DNA of 64,000 nt. It comes from Microthyrium microscopicum. Lineage: Eukaryota. The stretch spans positions 1,104,153 to 1,168,152 of the forward strand of contig MU004231.1 of assembly GCA_010405405.1 (NCBI GenBank), given 5' to 3'. Numbering within the stretch: the stretch's first letter is position 1; every line of letters begins with the position of its first letter. The notes beneath the pieces were generated by a model that saw nothing but the letters and a program-made list of their open reading frames with translations, was not told the origin of the DNA and did not search any database. This document shows positions 1-50,412 of this stretch, piece by piece. The position numbers and the translations under genes are program-made.

Positions 1-275
1 GTGGCGAAGCCAGGCTTGACAGTTCGCGGTCTTGGCATTCAAAAGGGGCCGAAACTGGGACCACCTCCACGATATAAAAAAATCCGTGTTCTTTCAATAA
101 TGCGGTCAAATCAAATCAAAGCCTTGAAATGCATAGAACAACACATAAGCTAGCCAGATTGCAATAATGCATAAGGAAACTACTAGAGGAAGTAAACCAA
201 CCGAATGAGTAAACATAGAGATGTGAACGAGATGTGAACGAGTCGACGGAGCTTCGCGAGTTGAAGCTGAGTCGG

Positions 276-550
276 GCTCTCCACGGAGCTCCTCTCTCCT
301 CGAAGAGTCTCTCCACAGAGATATTCTCTCCTTGAAGATCATCTCTCCTCGGCTGTTCTCTCCATGGAGAGAGTCTCTCCTTGGAGAATCTCTCCGCAGA
401 GCTCTTCTCTCCACGGAGAGGTCTCTCCACGGAGAGGATCTCTCCACGAAGACATTCCCTCCTCGGAGACGTCTGTCCACGGAGAGAGTCTCTCCACGAA
501 GAATCTCTCTCCATGAAGAATCTCTCCACGGACCTCATCCCTCCATGGCG
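276..550. repeat. Degenerate minisatellite, ~17 copies of TCTCTCC(A/T)(C/T)G(G/A)AG, period 15-18 bp
   Basis: Counted directly in the sequence. The unit is partly self-complementary (CTCTCC...GGAGAG). Confidence 0.85.
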
Positions 551-972
551 ATCTATCATGTCATCATTCTCACGAGTACGCTTGATATCCGCTTATAAAC
601 AATCTTTTGCCTTGCACATCTCCAGTCCAATCCGAGTCTCATTTATCTGCTGTTCAGCAAAATTATGACACCGCGCGATCGCGAGCTTGCTAAGTATGGT
701 GAACCACAGAATCCCTGAATTGGATCAGGTCAAGTCATGCAGCTATTCGGAGTTCTGTAACCTTGAGGCTGCGGAATTAGCTAGCACTATCTATTTAGCC
801 AGTTGGGGTTCTAATTGTGTCTCTTTTCCAATTGCTTCTTGGGTTTCTGCTTATAACATGCTAAAGCACCGGAGATGGGATTGCGCACTGAAATGCTAGT
901 ATTGATCTCATTGAAAATATTTCGATACACGTGTAACACCTGAAACTCCCACCCTAGCAATTTATCTATAGA

Positions 973-1566
973 TTATCCCATATTCCTGCAAGTGACGGCT
1001 CCCAAAATCCTCCACATGAAGTTCACAATTCCCCATTCGCTGACCTTTCTCGCGCACAGTCTCTCGGCTTCCTGTCTGACTGCCTTGTCGAATTCGTCTG
1101 GCGACTCAATCAGAGTTATGCCGAAGCGTTCGCAAACTATCTGGACGTTGCCCTTCCGAAGAAACCCATCCGGACAGCAAACGATCAATTTTCGGTCTTT
1201 CGCATGATGACCTAATTCCAGGAGAGTAATCGGGGATAGCTTTTCGGGGTGTGGGTCGAAGTACATAGCAATGATATCACATTGCTCAAGATGGTCCATT
1301 TCCCAGTCGACTTGTTCTTTGAATTTGGGGTTTGAGATATCTTGCTTCAGGTTGGGATCGAATTTGTTGCCTTCTTGGTCACAGCGTGGATTGTACACCA
1401 CTATAGGCAAGTCTGAGAGCATCTCTGCCATCTTTCTCTGCCAGGGAGGGGCCGTCCCCATATTTATGCTCCCAGCGAGGAAGATGGAACGAAGAGGCTT
1501 CTTGGCGAGCCTGGTTGGTGGTTGAACATGCTTGTTGAAAGGCTGTTGTTGGATCTTGGCCGGCAT
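973..1566 (-). CDS. Nucleoside 2-deoxyribosyltransferase-like protein (Nuc_deoxyri_tr2-type)
   Basis: Motifs SIFLAGSI, VYNPR, QVDWE, D-I-x-x-YF, SPITLLELG and RKGNVQIVC. First ATG is at 1566 (MPAKIQ). Confidence 0.8.
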   Translation of the reverse strand: MPAKIQQQPFNKHVQPPTRLAKKPLRSIFLAGSINMGTAPPWQRKMAEMLSDLPIVVYNPRCDQEGNKFDPNLKQDISNPKFKEQVDWEMDHLEQCDIIAMYFDPHPEKLSPITLLELGHHAKDRKLIVCCPDGFLRKGNVQIVCERFGITLIESPDEFDKAVRQEAERLCARKVSEWGIVNFMWRILGAVTCRNMG

Positions 1567-3359
1567 CCTTGGGGTGTGCAAGTGGATATTTGTAGATGTG
1601 ATTTTTGACGGTTTGAGCTTCGTAGAGATTTTGGTTCTGAGTAATTATGAAGCTCTTAGATTTCGTCCAGTCCTTGCTCTTCTTATACTGACTCTGGCCT
1701 TCTGAAATCCTCGTCGTCGTGTGGCTTGCCCACAGGGGTCCATTTCTGGGACCCCCTCTGGTGATGACTCTCTGGTTCCTAAAAGGAGGCTGAGCAACAC
1801 GGTAGCCAAATTAAACATCAGTAATCTTTCATTCATTGGCCTCATGTTCCATAGATGCAGCTACTGACTGAGCAGAGCCGATCCAGGACCAAAGCATAAC
1901 CGATGGAGGAGACGCAGTTGTTGCCAGTCCAGGCTGTTCAGCAATCCACGGTATACGGCATCAGATTGTAGAACAAGTTTACAGCCTCAGACTCTGTGGT
2001 GGCATAGCAGTCGCCGAGGAAGACAATTCGTTGATGATAGGAAACAACATCAAGCCGGTGACCACATTCGCCCTCCGCCACTCGAATACCTCCAAGCTCA
2101 TGATCAAGGGCACAGCAATTGACCTCTCGGTCTCGTATATGCTGAGGGTGCACATGCCGCGCCCGCTGCATTTCTGCGCGCTTCATCGTCAAGACTCAGA
2201 CGGAGGCTATTGATGTTGCCTGGCTGGTCCCGAATGCTAATAGCGACTTTACTTTGAACGACCGTTTTTCCAAAAGTGAGATTTTGTTGAGAAAGCGTTC
2301 CAAGGCAGATACGAGAGCTCCATATTGTTGGCAAGTGGCATCATTCTCTGTTGCTGTGCTAGCATCGTGGTTCAAATTGTGGTCGTTTGATTGCTTGCAG
2401 ACTTGGATTTGGGGATACAAAGGAGAGCTTTGCCAAGAATGCCAGGCCCAAGCGTCCTTCCGTCTTCTTTGCACTCCATCATCCTTCCAAAAACGTCAAC
2501 TGAAATTGAGTACGGAGTTTCAACGAACCACTTATCTAACAAAGGAAGCTCTTATGTGCAATCGTTTTGATTCACTCGTGGATGGTACTCCCTTCTGACA
2601 CAAAGTAAGTTTATGCCGCTGGCAGAGGTATCAACTCGGGTCTACGCAGTTCTATCGTAAATGTGCTCGCCTTTACTCCAGCCCTCACCTTGGACTTTGA
2701 GGAGAACGATGTGATTGAACTTGTGGCGTACGTCCTCTCCTCGAGGAGCCTGCCCTGCCACATATGACTACACTTACCTTATGGCACCACTATTTCCGAA
2801 GCTTAACGCATCTCCATTGGGTCAAAACTAAGGATAACGCTTCAGCATACGATTACCTTTCGACGAAATATCAGATCGAGAGACGGAGAGCGTTGATAGT
2901 GTCTTCTACGCATCTTCTTTCGTGGTGGGGCCATATCCGGCACCCTCCACGTCAGTCCTTGCTGTGAGGGACCATGCGGATTACGAATTGTTCAGCCTCT
3001 TTCATGCAAACTGTGCATTGCCTGCACATCTACGAGTTCTGGTCCACCGTGAGATGCTGCGCCCGTATCAGCCGCAGGCATCATCGTCATGCCATGATCA
3101 GTGGTTGAAACGAAGCAGGCCGTGATGCCCAGTCATCCTCTGTGACCGCTATCGTTGATTGCAGATCAGGAACGCGAGTTGGTGGCAGTGTCTTCTTCCT
3201 GGTCCGGCATGAATGAGAATACGCCTCCCCCTGAGACACGACGCCAGTCTGATCAGATATAAGATGCGGCGTGTCCTAGTCGCTCCTGGTATTGAGTTAC
3301 ACTTTTCGGTTCGTCCTCAACAGCCTACGGTGCATACTGATTCTCCTCTGGTCTTGAAA

Positions 3360-5026
3360 ATGCCAAAACAACGAAACTCCACAGTTAGACACTCTGGGCC
3401 TTCACTCAGCCCATACCGAAGACCCAGCATACAAGCTCGCACTACAGACGATGCTGAGTTTTCAGAACAGCTCACTGCATTGCAGCAACTGGCAAGTAAA
3501 TTGGCTGCCAAGCGAAGGATCGTCATCATCAGCGGAGCTGGCACATCCACGAATGCAGGCAGTAAGTCACAGGAAGTCGATGGTTCGTGCTCTAACCAGA
3601 TTCCGTGACAGTTCCTTGCTTTAAGAGTCTCTCGAGGACTAAGATGGCCAGCCGAAACGTATTCGATCTTTCAGCGTATTCTTCGCTGGAATCTGCCAAC
3701 TTATTACACGAGAGTGAGCTGCAGATACTCGAATCAGCGTCCAGGAATGAGCCTCAGCCTTTTGAGCTTTTCATGGAACAGTTGGCTCAATCAGGCCGCC
3801 TTCACCGACATTATACTCAGAACATTGATTGCCGCACGAGCAAGCTCCCCGCACTGAGTCAAAGAACGATTAATCTCCATGGTCGACTGGATAGATTAAG
3901 GTGTCACGTATATTCTCAGCACACAGTTTCAGTTCAGCAGCAGTCACTGCGGGAGTTGCTGGGTGCCCGATGCCCGGTATGCGACGAGAAGAATGAAGAA
4001 CGGTCCCGAGAAGGGAAGAGACTTCACAGCGTGGGATTTCTTCGACCCGACGTGTTACTATACAATGAGAGTGACGGAGCCGATCCTCAGATCATGAAGG
4101 CGTTTGAAGAGGATCTACGTGGAAATATCGATGCGGTCATCATTGTTGGAACGACGCTCCACATTCCTCTTTTGGAAGACTTCACAACCAAAGTCTGCCG
4201 AAGAATGAAACCTTCCACGGGAAAGACGCATTTACCTAGGACTGAAGGAATGGTTTTATGGATCAGCACCGAGAAACCAAAGGTAAGAGCAAAACTAAGA
4301 GATCTCATCGACTCAAAGTTCCTCCAAGACTGCGACGAATTCGCAGTTCAAATCTCTCCATGGCTTGACAACCTAAAAGGTAAGATGTCCCTCAGCAAAA
4401 AATAATCATTACTAAGTATGCACAGATATCTCATCTAGTGTCATGGCTTCGACAGAACCCGATGTTGGGATTGAAAGAGAACTTCAGTCCCCACGGAGCA
4501 GCACATTTGATCCTCCTAAACCTATCAGATCTATCGTCGATCTTACGGTTGACCAAGAACACTGCTGCCTATGTCCAAATGTCTTGGGCGAAGGAGGAGA
4601 CCTTGAAAGCAGAGCCTTTGTCTTCAATGACTGCGGATGTGTAAGCGAACGACGAAATCAACTTTGGCTGTGCTGATCAATAACTAGGTCCTTTGCGGCG
4701 AATGTGTTGGAAATGACAGCTCCATCGAGCTCACATGCCCAAAATGTGACCATTTTGGCAGCCTTTATTCCCACCCGCAAATCGTCCGTCAAGACTTTGG
4801 GCTCATGTGCCCTATTTGTTTCGAATCAGCAGGAACGGATACGGCGATTGAGCGCGTTTGCACGCCTTGCGGTAAGTGAGTATTCAAAAGCTTAGGAAGA
4901 ACCCGGCTTAATCAAAAAAAGGCCATGCATTCTGTCGTGCATGCATCACGGCGTATCTGGAAAACGGACAAAATGACACGTCTTCGAAATGTCCGACCTG
5001 CAAGGCTAAAATTCCCCGCGATGTAG
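3360..5026 (+). CDS. Sirtuin (Hst3/Hst4-like) fused to a SIM-like motif and two RING fingers; 5 exons
   Basis: Sir2 motifs GAGTSTNAGIPCF, YTQNID, LHG, LRPDVLLYNE, IVGTTL. GT-AG introns 3562-3611, 4380-4425, 4641-4688 and 4872-4921 join in frame to CCLC..CGCVLCGEC..CPKC and CPIC..CGHAFCRAC..CPTC. Stop TAG at 5024-5026. Confidence 0.75.
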
Positions 5027-5484
5027 GTCATTTTGGATGTCTGCAAACTGTCCAGCGAGGGCTTGACATTGTCGAGAATTGAATGTTGTGGGTAGATGCA
5101 CTGTAATGGCGTTCGAGGCGGCGGTTTGTACACCTTCATAACCCTGCCTCAGAGGGATATCCATAGCCTTCTTCTACAGTACAGTACTGTACCGGACTGT
5201 ATGAATCATACGCTTAGATTTCCTGCGAGAAAACACTAGCATTGCGCGAATGCTCGAAATCAGGCACCCCAGGCTGATTACGGGCCCATTCGTGCTACAA
5301 TGAAGTTGATCGTCGACATTCAGCATGGGGCCCGAGACTGGACCCCGGGTTCAAAACTGGGACACTTGGTGTCAGTATACACGGCACAGCAACGCTATAA
5401 ATCTGTAAATTCCGCTTCAAAAGACTGCACAAACTCACTACTGTATCAGAAGCAAAGCAGAAGTTCAAGTTATCTTATACCATA

Positions 5485-6152
5485 ATGGCAGGAACGAAAC
5501 GCTCCCGTGCTGATTCGGAAACGGAGGAGGAGAAGTCAAACGCCAAGCGCCATAATGGCGAAGCTCCTGAGCACGAGGCAGAAAAGGAGAAACCTAAGGA
5601 ACAACCATCTCAGGACCACAGCAAGCAAGCCAAAAAAGCGGAAGACGGCTCGGAGTCGAAGCAAAAGCGCGCGCGGGAGCCAGAGAGCACTGACGAACCG
5701 GAGGCCAAACGCAGAGCCCCTTCCAGCCAGGGCGAAACTGCATATGATCATGCTCACAGAGTCAAACTTCGCACCCAAGTGAGGGCTTGTAAAACTCTCG
5801 CTGACTGTGGAGGTATCCTCAACAAGATTCCTGCCAGTAATATTATTGCTCTTGCCTTTGCTTTAAACGACGCGAAAGAGAACCATCGCCGCGAGTTGTT
5901 CGGCATTCTTCCCAAAAGTCTTTCTTCTCAGATTGTTGACATTCTGGCGAATGCCATCATAGACAGAAAGCGGTACGATCCAGAGTCACTTTATCCTATT
6001 AACTTATCGCTTTGAACAGGATCTTGCAAGCAATACCATTTTCAGGATATGATTCTAGAAAGCTGCAGAAAGTACTCATTCACAAAGGATGCCTGGCGAA
6101 ACAGCTGGATGGCGATGAGTCGCCATTTTTCGCAATGTGCCCATGTTTCTGA
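5485..6152 (+). CDS. Hypothetical protein with charged, NLS-like N-terminus; 2 exons
   Basis: ORF 5485-6015 with a TATA at ~5396. Probable intron 5972-6019 extends the frame to TGA at 6150-6152. Confidence 0.55.
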
Positions 6153-6747
6153 ATGGCAAGCAAGCTAGTTGCGGCGTTCGTTTTGATATCGATTGATTCC
6201 TAAATAGCTCAGTTTAAGTTAGTCAATGAAAAATCTTCTGCCACAATCCCCTCATGAATATCAGGACGTCAATACCTTAAATGAAGTTCAGATATTCTGC
6301 ATATAACATCCCAAATTGCGAGAACTGGCTTCAGGCCTCTTGCATTACCCCGTAACGTCACCTTTTGTCTCCCCGTGATTGATCACTTGAGCATGCACAT
6401 TACCCTGCGTAAGGCGGTGGTGATGATTTACCCATTGACATCGAGATTTACCAAAGAATCATCAACTGAGAGTCGTGCCTGATTTTGGTCCCTTTCAGTT
6501 TCACTCTCTTCGTATGGATGAGCGCCTCCACAAGCCCAGTTCTGGTCCCCCTTCGAGGTCCGAAACTGGACCCCGTCGAACGGCGACAACTTGCTCTGAT
6601 AGCGACCACTTTCAGTCTCGATGTGTTTCTCATGATTTAGAGTTCAGTCTTGGGCCCCCCTCAAGCTCCTTATAAATCCACTCGCTAGGACAGCTTGAAT
6701 CTATCTCGCATCAAATCTCTCACATCTAAGCAATATTATTAGTGAAC

Positions 6748-7887
6748 ATGGATAGCAACATGGAAGGAACTGGGGGTCAACAGAACCCTCCTCCAGCTAA
6801 TGGTCAACAGGACCCTCCTCCAGCTAATGGCCAACAGAACCCTCCTCCTGCTAATGGTCAGGATCCTCCTCCATCGAAGGGCCAACAAGAACCCCCTGAG
6901 GCCGGCGGCCAGGGGAGTCCAGATGAGCCAGTTCCAAGCACGGAAGGTGGAGAACAAGGTGGAAACTTTTTTCCAGGCCTCAATGGTTCCACAAAGTCTG
7001 GCTCCGGTTCAGGCCCATCTAAATCCACGCCGAAAGACAACGACCCAGATAGCGAAGAATACGGACCACCGATAGTCTTTATACCTGTGCCGAAAACGAC
7101 CGAAGGCGATGGCACAGTTGGATGGACCAGTCTCTGGGGGAAACTGTATCTCAATCGGTACGGAAAGAAAAGCCATGCAACATACCGAGTTGAGAAAGAC
7201 TGCGTTGATGGCTACGACAAGCCAGACGAGGAGAATATTAACAGCCTCCTGAACCGGCGCGGACATCTGAAAGTAAATGAAAACAGCACAGAGCGTAAAT
7301 ACACGAGAAGACACATCAATCGCATTCTCGCTGTTGCATGGCAAGGAAAGATTGCTACCACCGCTGACGAGGAATTTGATCGCTCAGAAGACCTAGATCT
7401 GATCAATCCGGCTATCAAACCAGATAAGACCAAGTATCCTCGCACCTATGTTTACGTCCGTTGGCTAATTGACGGAGAATTCGTTAAGACATGGGAGCCA
7501 AGGACCGAGCTTCAGGTTCGATACGGAGCGAAACTCGCGAACGATATCATCTTTACCGCTGCCAAGGAACAAGAAGAGAGATACAGCGATGCAAAGACTG
7601 GTAAGCGCAGGGCATCAAGCAGATCTCCTTCTGTCGGATTGGCAGACGGCGCGGTTCGCGAAGAACGCGAGAAGTCATTGGAGGCAGAGCGCAAGCGCGG
7701 CACCAGGGAAACGACTCCTAGAACAGCAGCCAAGGTTAGCGATCTGGTTATGAAGCTTATGGACGAGTTCAAGGAAATGCATCTTGCCTTGAAGGGCGTA
7801 GAGATGTACGAAGAACTTGATACTGAAGAGAAGGCCGAATTCTTTGACGAATGGAAGGAGTACAAGGCTGCCAGGATCAAGGCGTAA
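6748..7887 (+). CDS. Hypothetical protein with N-terminal GQQ(N/D)PPPAN repeats and a chromo-like C-terminal domain; paralog of 35789
   Basis: Long ORF with a TATA at 6671. Contains INRILAVAW...YVYVRW...TWEP and shares LDLINP and other blocks with the 35789 ORF. Confidence 0.7.
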   Translation: MDSNMEGTGGQQNPPPANGQQDPPPANGQQNPPPANGQDPPPSKGQQEPPEAGGQGSPDEPVPSTEGGEQGGNFFPGLNGSTKSGSGSGPSKSTPKDNDPDSEEYGPPIVFIPVPKTTEGDGTVGWTSLWGKLYLNRYGKKSHATYRVEKDCVDGYDKPDEENINSLLNRRGHLKVNENSTERKYTRRHINRILAVAWQGKIATTADEEFDRSEDLDLINPAIKPDKTKYPRTYVYVRWLIDGEFVKTWEPRTELQVRYGAKLANDIIFTAAKEQEERYSDAKTGKRRASSRSPSVGLADGAVREEREKSLEAERKRGTRETTPRTAAKVSDLVMKLMDEFKEMHLALKGVEMYEELDTEEKAEFFDEWKEYKAARIKA

Positions 7888-7974: not shown

Positions 7975-8431
7975 TAACATGGGTGCCGGCGTGGCGAGCC
8001 GCTGTTAGAGAATAGGATAAAAGGGATAATTCTTCTATCTAGAGTTCTAAGACTACCTTATATAATGCTTATGTACATGGGTAGTGTTAGAGACTGTTGG
8101 AACCACTCAGGTTTCCGTATATATACGGGATTTGGTCATAAAGAGTTCGTAGCTAATGATAGACTGGTATTCTGGTTTTCTGGTTGATGATGCTTTATTC
8201 TTGTCTAAGTACAGATGGTAGATTCCTGAGGACTAGCCTGCCAAGGATATCACGTGATATAACTAGAGATCCAGACAGAGACTGATACTATCACCAACAT
8301 TGATTGTATCAGTCCGAGATATCACAGCCACGTGATTGTGTCAGTCTAAGACATCAGTCACGTGACTATACATGGACAGAGGTGTGGGTGTCCCCATTTA
8401 ACAGCGGCTCGCCACGCCGGCACCCATGTTA
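7975..8431. mobile_element. MITE-like element: perfect 33-bp terminal inverted repeats (including flanking TA) around an LTR-like interior
   Basis: 7975-8007 taacatgggtgccggcgtggcgagccgctgtta is the exact reverse complement of 8399-8431. Confidence 0.75.
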
Positions 8432-8838: not shown

Positions 8839-9135
8839 ATGCTTTCCGACATTGATCTCGGAGAATACTACTATGTCCTCACAGCTAATGGCTTTGATAA
8901 ATGGGATCAAACAATTCACATCACCGAGGAACAGTTGGGACATCTTGGGTTTAAGTTGGGCCATCGACGCTGGCTTCAACGACAAATTGCATCACTCAAA
9001 GGCTACCCATCGTTGAAGCCACTTCCTGCTACAGCGGCAACCAATCTACCGCTTACCCTTCTACTCGAACTGGCGAATCAGAGCGAAGAGCCTAAGCCTA
9101 TGAACGCTGACGCTGTTCGTTATGAGACAAATTGA
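8839..9135 (+). CDS. Small SAM-domain protein, possibly truncated or a pseudogene
   Basis: DLGEYYYVLTANGFDKW..ITEEQLGHLGFKLGHRRWLQRQI is a SAM signature. The upstream ATG at 8788 runs into a TAG two codons later. Confidence 0.6.
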   Translation: MLSDIDLGEYYYVLTANGFDKWDQTIHITEEQLGHLGFKLGHRRWLQRQIASLKGYPSLKPLPATAATNLPLTLLLELANQSEEPKPMNADAVRYETN

Positions 9136-9332
9136 TGTTGGCATATGACTGGCCAGCTTGTTTAGCTGAACCATGGACTCTCAAAAGCCGGTTTGGGTAT
9201 TATCCACTCCATTAAATCCAATCTATTTCTTTACTTTCATGTAACTAATTCTCTCTTTTACGAAGGAAGTTTCGAAGGGTTGGTTTGGGCTGATTAATTG
9301 TTGGTAGAGACCTCTTTGGAGTAACATCTATC

Positions 9333-9498
9333 TGTTGGATGAGACGCCCGTACCTTACGTGATTGTAATGTCTGAGACTGACACAACTACTGTTGGTGAT
9401 AGTGTCACTCTCAGATATCCCTTGTACATCAGGTCTATATAAGAGACCTTCTAGATAGATAGACAGGAATCATTACTTCTTCCTTCCATTGTCTAACA
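9333..9498 (+). mobile_element. Solo LTR
   Basis: TGTTGG...CTAACA termini, 5-bp target-site duplication CTATC at 9328-9332 and 9499-9503, and an internal TATA (ctatataag). Confidence 0.75.
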
Positions 9499-10367
9499 CT
9501 ATCCCGGTGCGGCGGGCCGCCCGGTACAACGGACCACTTTATAGTTGAAAGTACTACCTGTCTCTAGTTCGCATATATATAAGGTTTCCCTTCATCAGAC
9601 CCTATTCTATAGCTGTTTCTCTAGAGTAAGAGATGGCGCAGCTTGAAAAGTTCTAGAACATCTCTATGGCCGACTCCGTCGTACATTTTTAAATTGTCCC
9701 CCCGAGTTTTCAGCCAAGGGATCACAAGTGCCTTTCACCTCGAACGCAGAATTATGTACTATTCAAATAGAATGGACTTATTGCACCTAAAAGGGTTAAG
9801 GTCTATCCACATATAACGAGCCAACTCATTCAACGGGCCGGATTCTAAATCCGGAGCAGCTTCTAACCTCCCTTCGAAAACATGTCGAGGGGTTATTGCT
9901 CGATAAATACTATACAAAATTTACTCTCTAACTTATAAGCCATTGATTTGAAACAAAGATCGATTGTATGGTGGCGTACCTGCTAATCGTTTTAATGGTG
10001 CCATTCATTTCATCTCATCGATACATAGTATATTAGAGTTACCGAGAGGAGCTGTTAATGTCGGTAGATATTGATTCTGATTCCAGCTTGCCTGCAGCAG
10101 GCTGAAGGTACCGGGTGGCGCGTACTAGTGACACGCCACTCCTTAGTAATTACCCTTATATCCTATGTACACATATACACTCTCTTGTACCTTTCCTTAG
10201 ACAGAACAGATAACACAATAGACACTAGAGGCTCCTTTTAAATAAGGCGAGCTTTGTGTCAACGTAGTTATCAAAAGTACACTTGGTAATTACTATTTAC
10301 TAATAGTTAAAGAGGATAGAAATCAGACTCAAAAAACTTGTAATACTAAGGGTATGTTAGTATAATA

Positions 10368-11160: not shown

Positions 11161-11166
11161 CTTGAG

Positions 11167-11241
11167 GGAGTTATTAAGTGGGAGTTATTGAGTGGGAGTT
11201 ATTAAGTAGGAGTTATTGAGTGGCAGTTATCGAGTGGGAGT
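11167..11241. repeat. ~5 tandem copies of 14-bp GAGTTATT(A/G)AGTGG
   Basis: Directly visible immediately upstream of the 11160 ATG. Confidence 0.7.
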
Positions 11242-11444
11242 AATGGAATGACTGCGGACGACAATGTCAGTGATTGGAAATGGAGGTGTTTTATCCGTTA
11301 TTAGGAGCTGAGGCTGAGCAAGCTGCTGTGCTACAATCGAATCGTTAATATTTGCTTACGTTATATGAATACGTTGTCATTCTTCATCCCTTGTCTCAAC
11401 GCTTCTCGCAAATTAAACTTCTTAACTCTTGCTCATTATTAACT

Positions 11445-12991: not shown

Positions 12992-13291
12992 GGGAACTAT
13001 GAGGTCTCAACAAAGCCGTTCAAGGGCGTACCCGAGGGCTTTGATTCAGAATGGCCACATTACGTGCATGATAAGTGGAGAGAGAGTAATCATTGAGGTC
13101 GTTAGAATGTGTAAATAACAATGTATTCTGGGCTCCTGAAGAACATATCCCCTCTTGCCTTCTCTCTTCCTGTACTGTACTTGTATTGTCGTACAGCCCC
13201 CTCGAGAGCTCCAAGTCGTCGGGCTTGAGGAAAGCGGCCTCAACGGCAACAACCTTCATTATTCCAGTACTGTCTTCGCCATTCCCTTCCG

Positions 13292-39021: not shown

Positions 39022-41412
39022 TTAAAGCGGAAGAAAGCCACTGGAGCGACCTGTGATCTCATCTGTCGTCGTGCCATTTCCCAACGCCAGGCCTCCGCTT
39101 TGGGGTAGCTCGTCTAGGCTCCTAGCCACAGCATCCCAATCTCCGTAGAACTCATGTACTCTCACGTCACTTTCTTCTCCGTCTTTGGAAATCAGCCCAT
39201 GGCCCATAGTGGCGCCCCACAAGCCTTCGACATTGATCGCGTGGTCATTGGCAATATCTTCGGCTTGGCGCTCCAGCTGCACCGTATAAACTGGCCCATG
39301 AATCCAGTCTTCACCATTTCTGGATGCTTCTCCTCCGGGTAGGCTTCCGCTGGGAAGAACCAGGTGCTGCCGCCGTCCTGCGACACAGGGTGCCACGGTG
39401 TGACCCATAAGGCGGTGGCGTCGTTGACGGTGATTACTGTCATAGTCCTGCCTTTAGCCTGGTCGGTATGACATTCCAACACCGTTCGCACTGCCTTGCT
39501 TTTTCCCTGAAGTGTCTTCACGGTGTCGCCGGGGCGCAGTTTCTCGATCGGCATGGTCTTTGTGGTACCGTTGGCAGGATCTACCACCAAAACCTTTGTG
39601 TTTCCAGCGAAACAATTACTTCCCGGCTTCCTATACCGACTCATCTTGATCGGAGTAGGAATTGGAGTAACATGGCGGCCCGCTACGGTGTCGTCGTAGG
39701 AAGGAGGCGCAGGTAGCCTTGGAGCTGGAGCCACAGGTAGCCTCGAAGCTGGAGGCGCGGGAAGTGAGTCGAAAAGGCCATCGAGCACATCAAGCTCGTT
39801 GCAAAACAGCTGGCTCCCCTTGCCATAATGCTGCGTACCCGGGTCCTTGAACGAGAAGCACTTTTGGTATTGGTGCGCCATCAGCAGGCTGGACAAGTAG
39901 TGGCGGCCCCATTTCTGCCAGCTCCCGTTTTGGAGTGCCAGCTCGATCTCGCCTTTCTTGTTCTCAGCGCCCACCAGATCCATGATGAGACCAAGGTTGA
40001 GCGGGTCGTGAATGAAGTTGCTAGCGGGCAGTCGAGAGACTAAATGCTGTATGTCGTTGCTTGTCGGGATCCGATGATCCAACAGCGCCTTGTGTTCGTC
40101 CCGTTCAGTAAGTGGGAACAGCTGAGAAAGAAATTCGACCAGCATCGCGCGTGAAGTATGGAAGGCTATCTCGGCGGAAGAGAGCCTTGGGTTATTGATA
40201 GAGAGTCCACTCTCGGCCGATACCCACTTGATTTCACGTCCTTGTCGATACTTTAACGTGGCCCGTATGCAGGACGACCGGAGTGAATGTCTTTGGGTTT
40301 TGGACAGCTCGCCAGAGCGGTCTCGGAGTTGGAAGAAAAGATCGCGGGACTGTCCAAACCGGATTGTTCTTAGGTTGATAGAGTATTCCACGTGAGCACC
40401 TTCTCGTTCGCTTGTGACTTTCTTAGGAGCTGCCTTGCCGATGTAAAGTCCAAGCTCCGTGAGATCCAGGAAATTTGGGTAGCTCAATGTCATGGTAGCA
40501 TCGTGAGCGTATGTAACCTTCAGGTTGGCGACAGCGTGATTGAAGACAGTACCGAGCATACTGGTATCAGGGACGAAGCAGTAATCGCCCCCGCCAAATT
40601 CGGCTATCGACTGCAGGAGGCCGTCTTGCAATTTATAGCCAAACCCAAAAGTGTGGATCGGAACAGGCATGTTCTGTAATCCCCTTTCTTTACACCACCT
40701 GCCCATCGCGGCGATGATACTATTGGAAAGACGCTCGTTGGGTTGACCATCGGTAAAGATCTTAATCGCTCCTGTCATGCATGGATTGCCACTGAGCTGG
40801 TCGAGTGCGAGTCTCATTCCGGACCACAGATACGTATATTCTTCTGGTTGCATGCTTAAGATTTTCTCCTTTGCGAAGCTCTTATTCTTGCTATCCATGT
40901 GAAGAGCTTGGAAGAGGACCTGTGAAAAAAGCGTTAGCAGGCTTACCACAGTGGGTGAAAGGATTTGTTACCTTGCAATCCGTTGAAAATGTTACCACGC
41001 AAAGTGTATCATGCTTGTTGAGGCTCTCAACGAGGGTACACGCGGCATGTTTTGTTAAGTCAAGTACCGTGAACCCCTTCTGTTCCGATTCCTCGCCTTC
41101 ACTACTTGGAGGTACGGGCGCTAGATCATTCATACTTCCTGATACGTCAATCAACAGTACAAGCTCCATAGGTCCACGGGTCTCATTTGCGACTGGCTCT
41201 GCGGGTGGAACTACCTTAACGATGAGACCGTCGCGATCAACTCGGTGAACTGAGACTTTGCAGGCAAACTGCGGCTGTGGTACGGAGTCTTCTTTGATGC
41301 GGAGTGCAAGATGGGTGGGACTGTGGTCGGGCATAATGATATCGTAGTCGTCATCCTTCTCCTTCTTCTCGTCGTTGACCGCCTCGTTGATCGTTCCGTT
41401 GAGCCAAGTCAT
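39022..41412 (-). CDS. vWA - Vwaint - Hint - Vint protein (one intron; frameshift near 39300 in this sequence)
   Basis: LLIDVSGSM (MIDAS), FTDG, IHTFGFGY; KWGRHYL..AH..C..FKDPG; Hint NCFAGNTKV and VTPWHPV; VYTVQL..HAINVEG..ATMGHG..HEFYGD in the shifted frame. Intron ~40919-40971. Confidence 0.8.
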
Positions 41413-42159
41413 AGGTGCTCGCTCGATCCCAGTGAATGATAAAGCTGATGAGAGAGATGGTGGAACCTGTGAGGGCGAATGACGTTTCAATTGTTGGGTT
41501 GTTAGGATATGATAAAAAGTTGAATGTGCGAGAGACTTTCGTTGGAGTCAATGCCACGGTGGGAATTGAAAGATGCTGTGCCAGAGATGGCGGTATGCTA
41601 GACACCAGAAGCTCTCCTTATATGTACACACAGAGGGCATGTGCCAGCGGGCGGTGATGTGGCTATGGTATGAATTGCATGGAAGCAACTGCATGATTGC
41701 CTTGAAATCATATGAGAGATGATGCAAGATTGGGCCATCTGGTACAGCCCAAGCCGCAGGACTCAGTAGGGATGATCCAAGCCTACGAACGATGCTGTGC
41801 ATTCACGAGCAGTCCGGTAAGGTCGAACCCTGGCCGTGGCTCGTTGCCCGAACGCATAGAGATGGCAACTGCTTGCTGTGCCTCCTGCGCCTTGTCTTGT
41901 CCGGTGATATGCCTCCAACATGTTTCTTCTCGAGATGTGCCGCCTGTTCATTCGCTTCGTAGGAAGGCTTCAGAGAACCGCCACCGCCATAACGTGACGA
42001 GATGAAAGGCGAAGTAGAACCAGCGGACGTGGCTCTCAGAGGTGAAAATGTAGAGCGCGCAGCGTATAAGTGCTAAAGAAGTTCAGAAACTTCCTGCTCA
42101 AACGCATCTGCAACGATTCGAATCTTTCAAGACCAGTCAATTCCACCGCAACACTTCAA

Positions 42160-42860
42160 ATGGACGATTTCGTGCTGCTCCCTACCTGCGAAGGTATAGA
42201 AATGGCTGTAGGCTTCTGCCGCGATCTCGACTCATCCAGGTGCTAATAAACTTTTCCAGGAATCTATTGGCGCTGCCGACACTGTCAAATATGATGTCTC
42301 TTACAGATCAGCTCTCGAGTCACTTGGCGAGAAGTCAAAGGATAAAAATCATGTGGTCGGGACTGCACCAGCCAATAATTCTCAAAACGTTGCAATAAAT
42401 GGTCAAGAACTGAATGGTGAGTAAATAGTTCATCACTCCGAGATCGAGCCTGAACTGTGGTTTAGCAATTCTAGCACTCTGTAACCGCACACAAAGCAAT
42501 ACTGCAACTCTGGCAATTGCTTTTCTCCAGTTGCAACAGCGCGAGTCACTTCAACAGACGCAGAACTGGAGGCTGGAACAAAGAATTTCGACTCTAGAGA
42601 TGCATATCTGGAGGCTAGAAAACCAACTCTTACAACAAGACTGTGTGTTTGTGCGCAGGGACGAACAAGAAGACCGGCTCAGTGGAATTGACGAGCAGAT
42701 GGAAACAATCAGGAACGATATCGATATGTTCGGTGACAGAATCTTGGAGCTTGAAAGCGGCAGCGGAGATTCGAAAGGACATTCAGATGCTGACCTGGCT
42801 GGGGCAAAGGCTCTTCTCGGACTAACGATGGGTAATAGTGGTTCGGAAAGCTCTGTTTAG
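42160..42860 (+). CDS. Hypothetical coiled-coil protein, multi-exon
   Basis: ATG 42160 after a TATA at 42065, GT-AG introns, last exon has heptad repeats (LEQRISTLE..LENQL). Confidence 0.45.
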
Positions 42861-42943
42861 AAAGTCAAGGATGTGTGATAGTATGATTGACTTACACTGT
42901 TTCAAGCTGTTCACCTTTCTTGACTTGCGTCTCTACTTGTGAA

Positions 42944-43124
42944 GGGGACCAAAAATGGGACCCGGCGGTATAACATCTTCGCCATATCCTGGTGTCCTCT
43001 CATTGGTCGTAATTAGCTGGGATTCAGCCTGATCCATGCTGCACCGCCACGGATAGGGTAAGCCTGGTCATTGAGCAACCAATCAAGTGATTGGATGTCT
43101 GGGGGGACCATTTTTGGTCCCCCC
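42944..43124. promoter_or_regulatory. Conserved non-coding cassette, copy 2
   Basis: Same block order as 35339-35485; ends 90 bp upstream of ATG 43214. Confidence 0.6.
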
Positions 43125-43213
43125 AGGAAAATCAATTGAAATACGCTCGATGATGGAATTCAAGATTGCTTAAACAATTACAATACTTCGCTGCAACACA
43201 GAGAGAGAGAGAT

Positions 43214-43979
43214 ATGGAGAGAAAAATGCGTCAGAGTAATGTCGACCGTGACCAGTGGAGAGTATTGTGCCGTGAGCGGCTCTCAAAACACATTCGTAAG
43301 TCAACAGAAAACTTCATGGAAATATAGCTTACACCATTGGAGAAAGCACTCTTGGAATCAACGTAAAGCCGTCTGAAGTTCGCCTCAGTCCTACCCCAAA
43401 CGACCCATATGCTTGGAAGATCTTGCCTGAAAAACGCAAAACTTTTTCAGAGATATTCACCAAGAATCTAAGCCAGCATTCCATCAACGCATACAAAGCT
43501 TTATGTGAAGGAGTGGGAATCTCATTTGAGGCTGTATATGCATCTACCTATGATACCAGCAAATTGGACCAGCTCACTCCTGTAAGCTCAAGTTCAAGAC
43601 GTCACACCTGCGAGATCTTTCTAATGCATATATATAGCTTCGAACAGACGACGTTAGCTTCAGTACCAAGATCGATCATCTACAAGGTGCAAATGCCAAG
43701 CTTCAAGAGGAGATTGAAGTATGGAAGGAGAAGGCAACCAAGGAATCTCAGCGAGTGAAGCTTACAGAAGAACAGTACTGCGGAGTCCGCGAGAGTTTAG
43801 AAGAACAGCTTCGCAAGATGTACGAGAGTAATCAGCAGCTTCATGAGCAGGTGGAGAGATATGCAGCCAGCACAGAGTACTTGAAAGACATGCTTGCGAG
43901 ATGCTTCGAAGGTTTAGGAACGGCATTGCCAGTGTTGGAGGAGATGAAGAAGGGTGTTTCGTCAGTAGTAGTCTCTTAA
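43214..43979 (+). CDS. Hypothetical protein with C-terminal coiled coil, multi-exon
   Basis: ATG 43214, donor GTAAGT at 43296, LGINVKPSEVRLSPTPNDPYAW block, and ORFs 43423 and 43755 separated by a probable intron. Confidence 0.5.
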
Positions 43980-44544
43980 GTCGATAGAGCTACTTGCAGG
44001 AATAGAAAGGCCAGCTTAGGTCTTTGATTTTAGTTTTAGACGCGGGGCCACGTACAAAGAATGGAAGATTCATTCAGTACACCGAATGTCAATGGCTTGG
44101 AGAAGAACCCGCCTTGAAGCAGTTGATCAGCAGCTGCTCCGTAAGATGCATTTGACTGGCACGCTAGAGCCGATTACAAAATGGCAATCATTTGCCACTA
44201 CCTCCTCCTAGCAAATGCGCCCACATCCACTTTCACACACGTTGCTACTCGATCCAACAATCCCCATTTCAGGAACGGTGGATTAAGGCTCCGAAACTTT
44301 TCTTCGTGGAGGCGAATGGGCTTTAGGTTCACTCTAGTCTCGATCCACGATGTCTGTCCGCCAATGCTGCACAGTGAGGTAGGTCTGTACGCCAAGAGCG
44401 TTGCACCAGGGCGCGACTAAAAGGCGAAAACTGTTGGAGTAGATGTTGGCTTTGACGATGGTAAGAACAACGATTGTGACGGATCTGCCAGACTGAACCG
44501 TTTGGTCCGTTAGCCACCGCATAGATATTGGGAAACCACAGCTC

Positions 44545-45612
44545 CTACCAGCTTTGAGAAGCGTGCGGAACGAGTGAGCTTGCATGACGAAGGATAACAA
44601 CGATACCATCAGAGCTGCGAGACATAAATGCTTCCACATCTGTGGGCATGGCAGTCGACGCGAGGGACGCCTCTGACTGCGATGGTGACTCTCGTTCTCC
44701 CTGCCAGGCATGCTCGACTGCTTTAACTGCTGCTAGAGGTCTTTCTACTCCTGAAGTCCTCGACTCGCCGTATGCAGTTTTCGCTTCCGTGCCGTAATAA
44801 GAGTCTTCGCCCGACTCATCGTCCGTGTTGGGACCATAACGTTGGAATCGAAGATGCGCAATCAACTCTTCGCCGCTGACTTTGACAGTCTCCAAGCATT
44901 CGACCGCGTTTGAGAGGCAGGGTCGAGAGATGCAGGAGTAGAAACTGCGGCCAACCATATCCTCGCTAGGAACCCCAATTATATGCTCGATGCCACTAGT
45001 GGCGTACATTATTGTCAAGGACCGGGTGTGGCGATTTAAAAAGAGCGCTGCACAAGGCTCTTGGTATCCGTAGCAGGCAGGTTGGAGCGATTTTGACGAC
45101 AAGTTATGTCGCAGGTAGCATTGGGGATCTGTGAGCGAGAACGCGAGTAAACGACGGATAATTGGGGCGTATGATCTGCGAACTACCTATCATTAGCACT
45201 GCAGGTTGGAGGACTGGAGCTACATACGACTGTTCGAGCGATGCGCAGTGGTGCAAGTGAACACCACATTGTAGACGACACTGAAGCATGTCTCGCAAAC
45301 GAGCAGGCTTCCATCGCGCTTGCGGAGCTCAGAAAGTATGAGGGCTGAAGCCTTATCCATGGAAACAGCTCGATGGTGATTCCGGGCGACGAGGTCGTGG
45401 TCTACGGGATGAAAGAAGTTCCACGCTGACCTGCCAATGACCTCATGAGGCATGTAGCCAAGGGTATCAAAAATAGAATCCGAAGAGTACAATATGAGCG
45501 CATTTTGTGTGCGATCTATTCAGCTTGCGCGCGGTCAATGCACTGTGGTTTTGAAATCGACGGGAAGGAGGCCGGAAAGCTTACCGTGGATGGTTATGAA
45601 GGCACTTTCCAT
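44545..45612 (-). CDS. Fungal double-PAS-domain protein; 3 exons
   Basis: MESAFITIH / YSSDSIFDTLGYMPHEVIGRSAWNFFHPVD / EPCAALFLNRHTRSLTIMYATSGIEHIIG / SSDGIVVILRHA. Confidence 0.75.
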
Positions 45613-46381
45613 ACTGTTTGTCTCTACCGCGTATGCGCGTATTTGTTGTTGGCCGACTGGGGAGCATGTGAAGAGGACAAGAAGTGAATCTGAGATCAAA
45701 AGCTGAAATGAAACTGAAGAGGACGAAAGCTAGAGGTGTTGATCGTACAATCTGATGGAGAAGACGCCAGCGACCCGCCCGTCTTGCATCTGCCACCTCG
45801 CTTCATTTGCCGCGACGCGCATAGGATATCAATGGCTTCGCGAATCTTCAATGCTGGAAGCACATTGGCCCTGCGCCAGAATGATGGGTTCCACAAGATT
45901 GTGTCTTGCGTTGGAAGTGGGGAAATCGGGGTTCGGGCCGGCCAGAGCACTAATGCAGGTAACAATCTCCTCAGATTCTGACATACTCCTATGACCTGAA
46001 CATTGACGGTGAAAAGCAATGGAGGGAAAGACGATGTATGGGAGGTTAATATGGGAGGTTAATTGGCTCAAACGAGACGTTGAAGTGGGGGGGAGGGAAC
46101 ATGAGGAGGCCCGGTCGCATCAGCGTGTTGATTAGTCATCCTGCCAGGCCATCAGCCGTAAGTGCCCAGAGCTGCGGAGCAAGGAGGAACTATTCAGGCA
46201 AAGTGCAGGCCGGAATTTCACAGCAAAGTCCTCCAGCTGGAAAATAATAGCATAAAGATTGGAGCGATTCTTCAATATACTCGTAAATCATGAGACTTCA
46301 AACATTCAAAGACGAGTTACCATTCTTTCATCGTGATATTGACCATTAAACATAAACGCCTATGGACTGGCATCAGCTTCT

Positions 46382-49300
46382 CTATGCGAACCTTCTCGGC
46401 CTTCTAACTCTTCGACGGCCCTCGCATGGCTGGTGAAATTCCTCTATCAGATCCTTACACCCTTCAAGGTTTTGAATAGGCTCCCATGTGTTCGCTGAAC
46501 TTGGCCATCCGTGCCACTTGACTCTGTAGAGCGCACTGCCCCCAACCATGTCATGACCAACGATAGCTTCCACCTTGTACTTATCTCTCGTGTTTGACGC
46601 TCTGTCAATACCCCATGATGCCATGTGAGTATTGTCAGTCTCAGCAGGTGGGCTATCTCCAGGGCCGGTTGCAGAATCACCTTGAAGTTATTAGTAGTGA
46701 AGGAGCTAGAATATCATGCGACTTACGTTCAGAAGGAACTATGGCGGCGTCATTGACCTGCTGCCTCGCCGGGTTGTTTGAGGCGTGAAGCACTGAGACA
46801 CTTCGCTCACGAAGCGTCACTCGGTGACATGCATCCACAACATCCGGCACGGAACTAGGAACAAGCTCTTGATAGTCACTGTGGACATGAGTCCAGTGGT
46901 CCACATCGTCATCTCCTGTGAGGTCTATGAATGTGAAGTTCTCGATCGCTAATGGTGGGTCCATTGGGGAGCAACACTGGCGACCAAGCTGATAGTGCAT
47001 ATGCGCTGTACTGGCCAAGGCGTACATGCTCTCTTCCATGTCCATAGTGTCTTTAAAATTGTTAGGATTAGAAGTAAGGTGGAGTTTGAGAGACAAACCT
47101 TGCTGTTGCCATGACGAGGCATCGTCAGACTGGTGCACTGAGCCACCCTCTAGAGACTCAATGGGGACAAAGTCGTCATCGTTCACATACAGCTCCTTGT
47201 AAGAGGCGCTGTCAAGACCGCTTCGGATGTCGTCGCATATAGATGATAGCGGCGTTTGACTACCACTGCTGCGTCTTCCACAGCTACTGCTAGCCGTGCT
47301 AATGGCAAGGGATGGTGTGCGGGAGGATGACTTGCTTGCAAACTTGAAAGCGGTGGCGATTTCCACAGATTCGATGCTGGCGTTGACGAATGTGTATTCC
47401 AATAGCGCTGTCTGCTCTTTTCCTGTCTCAGACTTGATATCCGCCTTGCTCTGGCGGGTGAGTTGTGTTTTCTTCAGATGACTGAAGGATCGTCTATCGG
47501 TTTGATTATTCTTTCTCTTCCGAGTTCTCAGTTTCTTGAGTGAGTGGATACCGTGGGCGTCTTGGAGATGAAACTGGAGTTCCAGGGTGGAATTAAAGGG
47601 AACAGAACATTGTTGTGTTCGAAATTCGCATTTTACCGGCTGCTCTCCCAGAGCATCGATGTGTCTCTGAATGTGGGTCTGCCACTTCGGTTTACTCTTG
47701 AATTGGTACATCCGTTTGCTGGCCGGCAGTCTTGGGTCTACAAGACAGTCATAGCAGAAACCTGGCATCGCAAGAACTCCGTTAAAGACCAGTGGATCGA
47801 GGAAGACGGGGAAACTCTCCAAATCATTGACATGATCTTGGCAGTGGAGTTCCCACGACTCTGTATCGAAGATCCAATCGCTGCAAAGGAAACAAAGTTC
47901 CGCGAAGCCACGATCTTGTTGTTGTGTCTCTTGGAAGCATTTGTATATGTGACTCCAATCGTAAGTTTCGGGACACATTTCTTGAAGGTTCGGCTTTTGC
48001 TCCTGGAAGTCGTCAGTTGCTGTGTTGTCATTGGACCTGCGACAGCATCTGTTAGGTTCCAAGCCTGGACGAAAGTCTACCTCTCTCTCTTTCTCGCACA
48101 GTTCCGTCATGTCTTGGATAACACGAAGGCCGGCGGGACTTCGTAAGTCAGCAACTTCGAACATGTCCTCGGCAAGGCGTTGTCTCGCCGGCATCATGAA
48201 ACTGCAGCGATTGAATATTTCGCGATGATAACCTTGAGGGTCTCCAGGTTGGTATGGCTGTTTCTTCTGCCACTTTCGCAGTTCTCTCTTCATCAGTCTG
48301 GCCTTCTGCTTACGCAGCTTGGTTTCTTCCTCCCGTTGCTGTTCGGTATCCATATCAGGTTCAAGCTTCACAGCAGCCATCTTTTCCTCGAGGTCAAGCC
48401 AGTCTTGGCGATTCTCAATCTCATATTGTTTGGCTGCTGGAAGGCTGTGCCATAGATTCGGGTTTCGAGGCAGAGTTAGCTCTCTGAAGGCGTCGTTCAC
48501 TACATCTCGTCGCTCGTCACCGAGGAACGTGGCCTGGCCATCCACGCCGGCATTTCTGGGCTGGTAGCTTGAATGGAATGTCTCTCTGTCATCTTGCCCG
48601 GCTTGTCCCATCCGCGCATCAGGCGAATAATGCTTGTCTTCGCCACTGTTAGCATGTTTACAACAACTCTCAAGCTTGCGTGCTTACCAGTCAAAAAGAG
48701 GCCTTCTGCCCTCCAGTCGTGAATCGTCGGGGGAACTAGGAAACCAGCTCGGATGCCGCATTCCCGATGTCTGCTGCCAAACGCACTGGCGGTTTCAATC
48801 CTTTTTGCGCCCTTTGTGGATTGATTCAGGAACACGGGTGCATCAAGTAGATCCTCCTCCCAGTGGATCTGGAATGCACGGTGTTCTTGAGTTGGGGTAA
48901 CTGCAAAGAGCTCTTGTAACGTCTTGTAGTCCCTAAAGGCACGACGTCTGAGGAATATAGCCAAGTATGGCAGAAGAGGGTTCTGATAAAGAGGGCGAGG
49001 ATACCGCCCTTCTGCGAATGCATGCTGCGGCCTGTGAGAGGTTTAGTCAATATCCATATTCGAATGTTCACATGACATTACCTTCTGTGAGGAGTGTTGG
49101 TCATGTTCTTCGCGTCCTTCGTAAGCTGCATAGCAAGTTCGGGTCTGTCATCCTCATTCAAAAACACTATTACCATGATATCCTGTGATTCTTTCAGTCA
49201 GCGGAGCCTCGCGCACGATGGTCTTTTTCATCGACGAACCTTGTAGCGCAGGCCTCTTCCGGAACCCCTTCTGGCTGATGATTCAATGTACTCTCCGATT

Positions 49301-49968
49301 CGAGCGGAAGAATACACAATCGCCAGGGTCAGGGCCCAGTCTAGTACTCTGGTTCCTGGCGAAGAGTATTCATACCAGTCCACCTTCCACAGCTGTCTGG
49401 CAAAATGGTACAGATGATTCCTGTTTGCGTACCGTCGTGCTCGTTTTCTCTCAGGCATCTTCAGCTCATCCTTCAAAGGGCCGTATATGAACTAAGTCTG
49501 GCGGTTAGCTACGGTGAATTAAGAGCTAGCAGTAGTCAAACATACCTGCGTAACCGACCTCTGTATGTGCTCCGATATTGGGTTGTCCTCATAGGCTCGT
49601 AGCCAGGCTCCGGTGAAGTTGTTCCAGTAGTTTCGAACACTTTCGACGCATGGAGGTATCCAGCCGTCCTCGTCCTCGTCTGTGTCGCTGTCGGGGTCAT
49701 CATATCCCCTCTGTCCGTCCATGCCGAGTGCCACATGCCTTATGAAGTCTTTCATCCATTTCAAGCTGTGGACTGAAACTGTCAGATTTAACTTCAAGTT
49801 GTCTTCCACAAACTGGTCCCAGAGAGCCAATTGTCTCCGATGATTTCGCTTTGTCCCATCTTCAAGGCCCTTCAGCACTGGCTTGTCGTTAACGATCCCT
49901 GTATCCTTTTGAGCGCCCCTCGCCCTCGCTCGAATGAAATGTGCTTCGGGATTCTTCCCTCTCGCCAT
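46382..49968 (-). CDS. Starship captain: DUF3435-type tyrosine recombinase with C2H2-like zinc fingers and a C-terminal chromodomain; 6 exons
   Basis: YSSARIGEYIES (catalytic R), KDAKNM, TIHDWRAEGL (HxxR) and RMGQAGQ..FHSSY (Tyr nucleophile); C-x2-C..H fingers. Introns ~49490-49545, 49183-49239, 49032-49081, 48638-48687 and 46681-46726 are all in frame. Chromodomain YKVEAIVGH..YRVKWHGW..NTWEP..NL. Confidence 0.88.
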
Positions 49969-50412
49969 TCTCTGGCCGGAGAAGAGATGTAATGATATTG
50001 AATAAGCTGCAAGCAAAGATGAATGGTGTAAGAATGTTCGATTGAACTTATGAAAGAGAATGAAGAGACACAGAGAATGAGAAGACCGGTTTGATATTCA
50101 AAACCCGCATCAACTGAACATGCTAGAGGGAAGGGGAGACTGGATTTCCTTGCTCAACATGAAATGAGTGACACGGAGAGGACGCCCTTATACATATGAT
50201 CCAACCACCATCATCCCATCCAGACAGCTATGCCCAAGGGGCCTCATCCTATTGCATCAGCAAGCCGCCGGCGGTGAATCACCTCCAGCCGCTCTATGAA
50301 GGGGATCCCGAAACTGGGACCCCCGACAGGGTCGCGTCGACTTGACATTTTTCTCATCGCATACTGCGTGGCTGCTTAGATGACGAGGGGCCCAGAACCG
50401 GGACCGCGAGTG

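Follow-up and report, generated by a model that had tools for sequence, protein, structure and literature searches.

A GGNCC dyad motif in the putative promoters of a captain gene and most other backbone genes in a Microthyrium microscopicum Starship

In the early promoters of giant viruses one short word heads many of the element's own transcription units, and in the tyrosine-recombinase core sites used for comparison here (loxP, FRT, dif and attC) inverted arms enclose a short spacer. In fungi, the CArG box CC(A/T)6GG is the site of SRF-type MADS dimers, such as Mcm1 of yeast and McmA of Aspergillus; for McmA the consensus is given in the accessible part of the source (PMC5468973). Among Starships, Kirc, the captain of Enterprise in Podospora, has been published as a tyrosine recombinase with a zinc finger and a chromodomain; as far as the available text goes, this account gives the target site RGGTAG and terminal repeats and mentions no internal promoter motif (PMC8092012). 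CHROMO captains are tied to the Enterprise family in the accessible portion of a 2024 survey in Nucleic Acids Research (PMC11162782). Here we describe a dyad motif, GGGNCC-N7-GGNCCC and its close variants, in a 64,000-nucleotide stretch of contig MU004231.1 of Microthyrium microscopicum (the window), which contains the captain and part of the body of a Starship, a fungal giant transposon. The motif marks the promoters of the captain and of most backbone genes, and is most likely a factor-binding site.

The captain lies on the minus strand at 46385-50097, where Pfam searches of the open reading frames (ORFs) find DUF3435 pieces at 48503-49042 and 46680-48683 and a chromodomain exon at 46385-46687. 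Its architecture, a DUF3435 tyrosine recombinase with a central zinc-finger region and a C-terminal chromodomain, is the same as that described for Kirc in the part of the Enterprise paper open to us (PMC8092012), and judged by sequence the captain is of the Kirc (Enterprise) type. Host genes occupy the window from ~51 kb (a GH127 arabinofuranosidase, a sugar transporter, SF3a60/Prp9 and a DEAD-box helicase, by Pfam); with the captain at ~46.4-50.1 kb, the element therefore extends leftwards from ~50.5-51 kb and exits the window at base 1. Within it, a metal module at 9075-25744 carries two cation-efflux genes, a Na/Ca exchanger and a PCA1-type P-type ATPase, and no strong copy of the motif.

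A sequence-only reading of the window had listed 19 copies of the motif, and all 19 were found in place, letter for letter. The motif is not random: with up to two mismatches, GGGNCC-N7-GGNCCC occurs 41 times, against a mean of 12.2 and a maximum of 21 in 100 shuffles of the sequence. The spacing profile of the strict dyad GGNCC-Nk-GGNCC provides a test that is independent of the list; it gives 4, 9 and 3 matches at k of 6, 7 and 8, where ~0.4 are expected in each case, and 0-1 at every other k between 0 and 15. These 16 registers fall at 12 loci, compared with ~1.2 expected from dinucleotide shuffles, and with a mean of 2.1 (maximum 7-8 of 300) when the sequence is shuffled in 200- or 500-bp blocks so that local composition is kept. 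The single word GGNCC is present exactly at expectation (163 against 163). When 5376 exact 4-mer dyads were surveyed blind, GGGG-N12-CCCC, GGGG-N13-CCCC and GGGG-N14-CCCC ranked among the top eight (second, third and eighth), the rest of which were AT-only.

The dyad symmetry and the oriented, A-rich spacer described for the motif are both borne out, and on the A-rich strand the consensus reads G-GGNCC-[R]RAAHY[G]-GGACC-C. A CC-N6-GG core is found in 14 of the 19 listed copies and CC-N7-GG in three, the other two being one letter away; 11 of the 19 contain the strict dyad, and those at 5347, 6475, 6533, 27338 and 27440 are one-armed or degenerate. Only 5-7 bp per arm are conserved. Conservation is strongest in the outer GGG/CCC flanks, which accompany 12 of the 15 CCRRAAHYGG cores in the window, the three unflanked cores belonging to the metal module or to a coding frame. 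Spacers vary from copy to copy, and site orientation is not fixed, with both orientations found even inside single promoters; the centres of neighbouring sites are 20-30 bp apart in three clusters. A scan with a position weight matrix (PWM) adds unlisted copies at 2925-2947 (18 bits) and 6638-6660, together with a weak copy at 14819-14841 in the metal module.

The sites lie between genes, the copy at 2925 excepted. To describe their placement we grouped 21 of them, namely 20 backbone PWM matches of at least 16 bits and the weak listed copy at 27338, into 10 clusters. Seven of the 10 lie within 400 bp upstream of an ATG-initiated ORF of at least 100 amino acids, compared with 2.9 for random placement (P=0.008), and a TATAWA box stands within 60 bp of four (random 1.1, P=0.02). 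In three promoters, those with TATA boxes at 73, 6671 and 28572, the nearest copy ends 9-12 bp from the box. Across 28 approximate gene starts, the highest PWM score within 500 bp upstream is bimodal, reaching 21-29 bits at 11 of the 16 backbone starts; in the metal module it is at most 4.4 bits at six of seven starts and 16.2 at the other, and at all five host starts it is at most 6.3, leaving both groups without a strong site of at least 21 bits (0/7 and 0/5). The contrast between backbone and metal or host regions, defined after the data had been seen, has a Fisher P of 2e-4 for 11/16 backbone against 0/12 other starts, and of 2e-3 when the weak metal-module site is counted. The site-bearing backbone starts belong to the captain, the DUF7492, Ferritin_2, deoxyribosyltransferase-like and SIR2/RING genes, two chromo-like paralogues, a 176-aa charged protein, two unknowns and a transcript behind the TATA box at 73.

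The upstream-distance, TATA and PWM tests thus agree with the proposal that the motif is clustered in putative promoters, that of the captain included. Two sweeping statements of the sequence-only reading need trimming. Its claim that no copy lies in the metal module or in host DNA holds for the strong copies, all 12 strict loci being at 1-9.2 or 25.7-51 kb, and fails for the weak copy at 14819-14841. Similarly, its claim that all copies stand 5' of genes or TATA boxes is right only in part, the exceptions being the copy at 2925 and the clusters at 27338-27484 and 42943-43123. What is observed directly, within this window, is that the motif exists, exceeds chance, is placed as described and keeps to the backbone.

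The arrangement of the sites differs from promoter to promoter. The first copy (45-62, plus strand, 26 bits) precedes a TATAAA at 73 by 10 bp, and the copy at 1735-1756 (minus) lies between a Nuc_deoxyribosyltransferase-like gene (minus) and the SIR2/RING gene (plus), which diverge from it; the unlisted 18-bit copy at 2925-2947 (plus) is within an open frame. At 5327-5364 (plus) two copies abut, with centres 20 bp apart, followed after ~30 bp by TATAAA at 5396 and at 5485 by the ATG of the 176-aa lysine/glutamate-rich protein. Four copies at 6475-6492 (minus), 6533-6551 (minus), 6555-6574 (plus) and 6638-6660 (minus) precede TATAAA at 6671 and the ATG of a chromo-like protein at 6748. The only look-alike in the metal module, at 14819-14841 (plus, 16.3 bits), is ~410 bp upstream of the second cation-efflux gene. 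Four further copies occupy 27338-27484 (plus; 27338, which is weak, 27408, 27440 and 27464), upstream of a gene at 26386-27337 (minus) and downstream of DUF7492, and two at 28589-28656 sit in the divergent promoter of DUF7492 (minus) and Ferritin_2 (plus), where TATATA at 28572 is 11 bp from the first copy. Two copies at 35339-35485 (plus) separate a gene at 34624-35217 (minus) from the second chromo-like gene (35790-36238, plus). The pair at 42944-43124 forms part of a promoter module homologous to 35336-35470, and its copy at 43101-43124 has perfect 9-bp arms and a CCW6GG core. Finally, the first captain open frame (49522-50097, minus) has two copies 200-310 bp upstream, at 50301-50406 (plus).

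Some of these intervals can be compared with sequences from another organism (organism B). Contigs of its run X5 are 100% identical to the window and skip six stretches of 45-130 nt with CT..AC ends, as expected of minus-strand introns, and one contig ends in sequencing adapter; the run is RNA in practice. The spliced, identical contigs imply that organism B transcribes backbone genes. One contig (34621-35294) ends 44 nt before the copy at 35338, and the next one listed starts at 35662, 176 nt past the copy at 35486, which fits a location of the copies at 35339-35485 in the untranscribed gap of a divergent promoter; the X5 listing holds the longest pieces, and an uncovered stretch in it is not evidence of no transcription. 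A contig that runs through 27338-27484 could be the 3' untranslated region of DUF7492 or the leader of the next gene. The transcript of the PAS gene runs on the minus strand to its end at 43204, placing the cluster at 42943-43123, ~80 nt beyond this 3' end, downstream of the PAS gene. The PAS-domain gene itself (43204-46100, minus) has at least four introns and the deepest-covered X5 contig by far, with a word depth of 422; ~1.1 kb of spliced transcript extends past the apparent stop codon, and the gene model is tentative.

A palindrome might also act as an RNA hairpin or a DNA cruciform, and some copies are indeed able to form stems of 6-9 bp, among them 43101-43124; the transcription of the cluster at 27338-27484 in X5 would suit an RNA structure. 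We find this explanation barely credible here. The central N positions of the two arms are complementary in 4 of the 16 registers, which is the chance level, and there is no hairpin covariation, so that the arms read as GG.CC and not as a stem. Moreover, the copies occur in both orientations relative to genes, others lie outside the listed transcripts, and no Rfam family matched anywhere in the window.

Shared ancestry of the copies is a further consideration. The intergenic sequences at 35336-35470 and 42941-43100 are homologous over ~150 bp; their first motif copies are identical at 24 of 26 nt, and a second copy is at the same place in each with its spacer inverted. Both contain the 18-nt box CCATGCWGCACCGCCACG (35405-35422 and 43034-43051), followed by CCAAT boxes, which is present nowhere else in the window (0.02 expected), and the first motif copy, the 18-nt box and the CCAAT boxes are among the best-kept blocks of the pair. 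In addition, the chromo-like proteins of 6730-7884 and 35735-36238, each with a motif cluster upstream, are paralogous (31% identity over 150 aa). The motif copies could therefore be relics of duplicated promoter modules or of a decayed small repeat, with no present function. As a general account this is very improbable. Outside the promoter pair, likeness ends at the motif edges: repeat finding joins the copies over at most ~27 nt, which shows that they are not pieces of a longer dispersed repeat or of a miniature inverted-repeat transposable element (MITE). In neutral relics the 6-8 bp spacing and the letters of the arms would not persist when every letter of the flanks and spacers differs. 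Common descent explains the one promoter pair, not the other copies.

The geometry of the motif raises the possibility that these are real factor sites of an ordinary host regulon, of which the element genes are members or recruits, with nothing specific to Starships; many host genes elsewhere in the genome, or in the donor lineage, would then have the motif ahead of them. The motif resembles the CArG box in its 10-bp CC-N6-GG core, its A-rich and slightly asymmetric centre, its dyad symmetry and its promoter-proximal, often multiple copies, a geometry shared with the sites of SRF-type MADS factors such as McmA (CC(A/T)6GG in the accessible part of PMC5468973), and two copies are perfect CCW6GG. 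It would also suit such a regulon that Pfam finds no MADS, Zn2Cys6, homeobox or other classical DNA-binding family, bar the captain fingers, in the ORFs of the window searched (85 ORFs of at least 90 aa window-wide, and 214 of the 332 ORFs of 50-89 aa starting before 51 kb, the small ORFs left out being those of the metal module and of an AT-rich transposon at 30-33 kb and most of those within the captain's long exon); the matches to bZIP-like domains in two coiled-coil ORFs were below threshold. With five gene starts as the host control, a regulon that takes in a few per cent of the genes would escape notice. However, with strong sites at 11 of the 16 backbone starts and at none of the other 12, the share is far above what a typical regulon takes of random genes, and the captain is among the carriers. 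The likeness to CArG is also incomplete, since the six-A/T centre is found in only 2 of the 19 copies and the outer GG(G)/CC(C) runs, the best-kept positions here, lie outside the CArG consensus; for these reasons we do not file the motif as a CArG box. We regard the host-regulon explanation as unlikely, though one to be taken seriously.

Other fungal sites were considered as well. The stress response element (STRE) AGGGG, the CreA site SYGGRG, the Ste12 pheromone response element (PRE) and the heat shock element (HSE) were set aside. The same applies to the VoRE/VbRE sites of velvet factors, CCXXGG and CCXTGG, which are unlike the motif as given in the accessible text of their source (PMC7885118), and to the VeA/LaeA elements, as far as the available part of the literature describes them (PMC10101098).

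The mobility enzyme of this element is a tyrosine recombinase with zinc fingers, and the inverted arms and 6-8 bp spacer seen in the spacing profile match the geometry of the core sites of such enzymes. The copies might accordingly be captain-binding or recombination sites that act in synapsis, in rearrangement within the element or in the exchange of cargo, and not in transcription. The captain does have a conserved three-finger domain, as does Kirc in the accessible account (PMC8092012), and the last two copies fall within the few hundred bases between the captain gene and host DNA. Compared with loxP, FRT, dif and attC, however, the arms are much shorter (conserved over 5-7 bp only), the copies are many and internal, their spacers are unlike one another, and they stand by TATA boxes and not at junctions. 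Recombining partners of tyrosine recombinases require matching spacers. A role in recombination would leave the 9-12 bp distance to the TATA box unexplained, and the subterminal 130 bp are filled by a different repeat, GTGAGC/TGAGC. The published Enterprise target, RGGTAG within CTACCT||AGGTAG in the part of the paper available, is unlike the motif (PMC8092012).

Rearrangements of the element point the same way. A DNA copy in organism C, 93-99.6% identical to the window, differs from it in structure at 27523/27615, 30055/33079, 33964/34647 and 42654/45178, the last of which has removed the cluster at 42943-43123 and most of the PAS gene; none of these four breakpoints and neither of the two metal-module junctions (9074 and 25745) falls on a motif copy. 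The likeness to tyrosine-recombinase core sites that the sequence-only reading had remarked upon is thus real in arm-spacer geometry and weakened overall by the unlike spacers and the absence of sites at junctions. We consider recombination sites distinctly unlikely.

We propose instead that the motif is a promoter-proximal site of a dimeric, sequence-specific protein, common to the captain and about 10 backbone genes, and we hold this to be probable, with reasonable though not high confidence. Binding by a protein, a dimeric binder, co-regulation of the genes and the sign of any effect are what we infer from these patterns. A dimer placed near the core promoter is suggested by the 6-8 bp spacing, the occurrence of both orientations, the 20-30 bp between neighbouring sites, the distance to the TATA box and the lack of pairing between arms. 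Each subunit would read one GGNCC arm on the DNA; with one to four copies upstream of the captain and about 10 backbone genes, all of these would answer to one factor, and the metal block and the host neighbours would not be wired into the regulon. Such a system would resemble the promoter words of giant viruses in that one word stands ahead of many of the element's own units and none at the neighbouring host genes. It would differ in belonging to a fungal giant transposon and not to a virus of protists, in being a dyad that stands in either orientation and in seemingly representing an upstream factor site, not a core promoter.

Several observations weigh against this proposal. Five of the 16 backbone gene starts have no site (at most 4 bits). 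The copy at 2925 is within an open frame, the cluster at 42943-43123 lies past the 3' end of the PAS gene and has no proven gene after it, and that at 27338-27484 is within a stretch transcribed in run X5. Two clusters, 35336-35470 and 42941-43100, are paralogous and hence not independent. The statistics have their own limits: the window scored with the PWM is also the one used to train it, the positions of gene starts are approximations drawn from ORFs and a few RNA contigs, and the host-promoter background amounts to five gene starts in 13 kb. The motif matches no documented factor site among those compared, and the dearth of classical DNA-binding families among the searched ORFs counts here too.

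If the motif is a protein site, its binder could be encoded by the host or by the element. A conserved host factor seems to us somewhat short of an even bet, an element-encoded protein is a tenable possibility that we rate lower, and something else is unlikely. The element extends beyond the window, so a factor gene elsewhere in the element is possible. Within the window, the captain fingers are the only DNA-binding-type module found, which makes the three-finger domain a candidate for an element-encoded binder. The presence of a captain zinc-finger region, as proposed earlier, is confirmed: three C2H2-like fingers are encoded in the long captain exon (residues 264-284, 310-341 and 352-379; 47547-47894 of the window, minus strand), and the Cys and His residues of these fingers vary barely or not at all among 12 homologues with 44-93% identity, two of which are Fusarium proteins annotated DUF3435 + Chromo. 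Conserved fingers accord with what the accessible Kirc account reports (PMC8092012). An AlphaFold model of the finger region, built from 13 sequences, shows beta-beta-alpha units at low confidence (mean predicted local distance difference test, pLDDT, of 55). A profile search of Protein Data Bank (PDB) sequences and a 'longer' homologue search with this region each returned zero matches. That the captain fingers read the dyad, with the recombinase also setting its own and backbone transcription and newly captured cargo remaining outside, we think rather unlikely.

Relatives of the captain were also sought in other sequence collections. A metagenome contig found with the captain exon (L001, positions 1-3387) matches the captain coding sequence at 84% identity over 1393 nt, beyond which it is unrelated; its 3.4 kb contain no promoter and no motif copy. 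The captain similarity in this contig stops abruptly within the second zinc finger, at exon residue 325, which suggests, on sequence grounds, a captain with a different C-terminal part or a breakpoint. Searches of viral contigs with the captain and DUF7492, and of prokaryote genome contigs with the captain finger alignment, gave no matches. For the chromo-like proteins (6748-7884 and 35790-36238) the Pfam Chromo match is below threshold and the chromodomain leads in the ESM Atlas are weak (0.78, for 6748-7884); for the 176-aa lysine/glutamate-rich protein (5485-6012) the ESM Atlas gave no usable match.

The surrounding element is itself a mosaic of repeats and insertions. The 16.7-kb metal block is bracketed by direct repeats (8931-9074 and 25745-25877; 108 nt at 89% and 26 nt at 92%) that are a duplicated part of a SAM-domain gene, and it looks like a later insertion or a recombination product within the Starship backbone. 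Inside it are an inverted-repeat element at 17708-19517, with 45-nt arms (98%) and an AT-rich 1.7 kb between them, 12 copies of a 42-nt tandem unit at 10316-11029 in an open frame, and, adjoining this array, a 14-nt unit repeated five times (11166-11249). In the backbone, an AT-rich transposon at 30065-33078 (~29% GC) has 85-nt terminal inverted repeats with 95% identity; it is exactly missing in organisms C and D, where 30055 is joined to 33079, and must therefore have entered this Starship copy. A MITE-like unit of 457 bp with perfect 33-nt arms is found at 7975-8431, and TCTCTCC-type repeats of 15-17 nt at 276-551, shortly past the TATA box at 73. Seven TGAGC and four GTGAGC, all on the plus strand, stand at 50419-50547, where the captain promoter gives way to host DNA; they are possibly subterminal binding repeats of the element end.

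The same element region is present in several differently labelled organisms (B, C and D). The copy in organism D (run X7, covering 26500-46499 of the window) carries 518 C>T and 477 G>A substitutions and a single change of any other kind, a pattern of the repeat-induced point mutation type.

A literature search, made mostly without subscription journals or supplements, yielded no description of a shared promoter motif in Starships. In Aspergillus fumigatus, the available part of a recent preprint reports co-expression modules that consist mainly of Starship cargo, names captain regulation as an open target, and lists a MADS-box gene as cargo of a different Starship (bioRxiv 10.1101/2024.06.28.601215); as far as that text goes, the modules and the MADS cargo are compatible with regulation at the level of the element and are no proof of it. 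For Starship biology, a site of 18-20 bp would offer a handle on the control of transposition, both as bait for the regulator and as a target for mutations that uncouple captain expression. Scanning other genomes for the motif could distinguish genes long resident in the element from cargo captured recently. Should the binder be encoded by the element, this would explain how element genes work after jumps between species, and if the captain itself is the binder, the Starship would carry a self-contained, host-portable regulon comparable to the circuits of phages and integrative conjugative elements.

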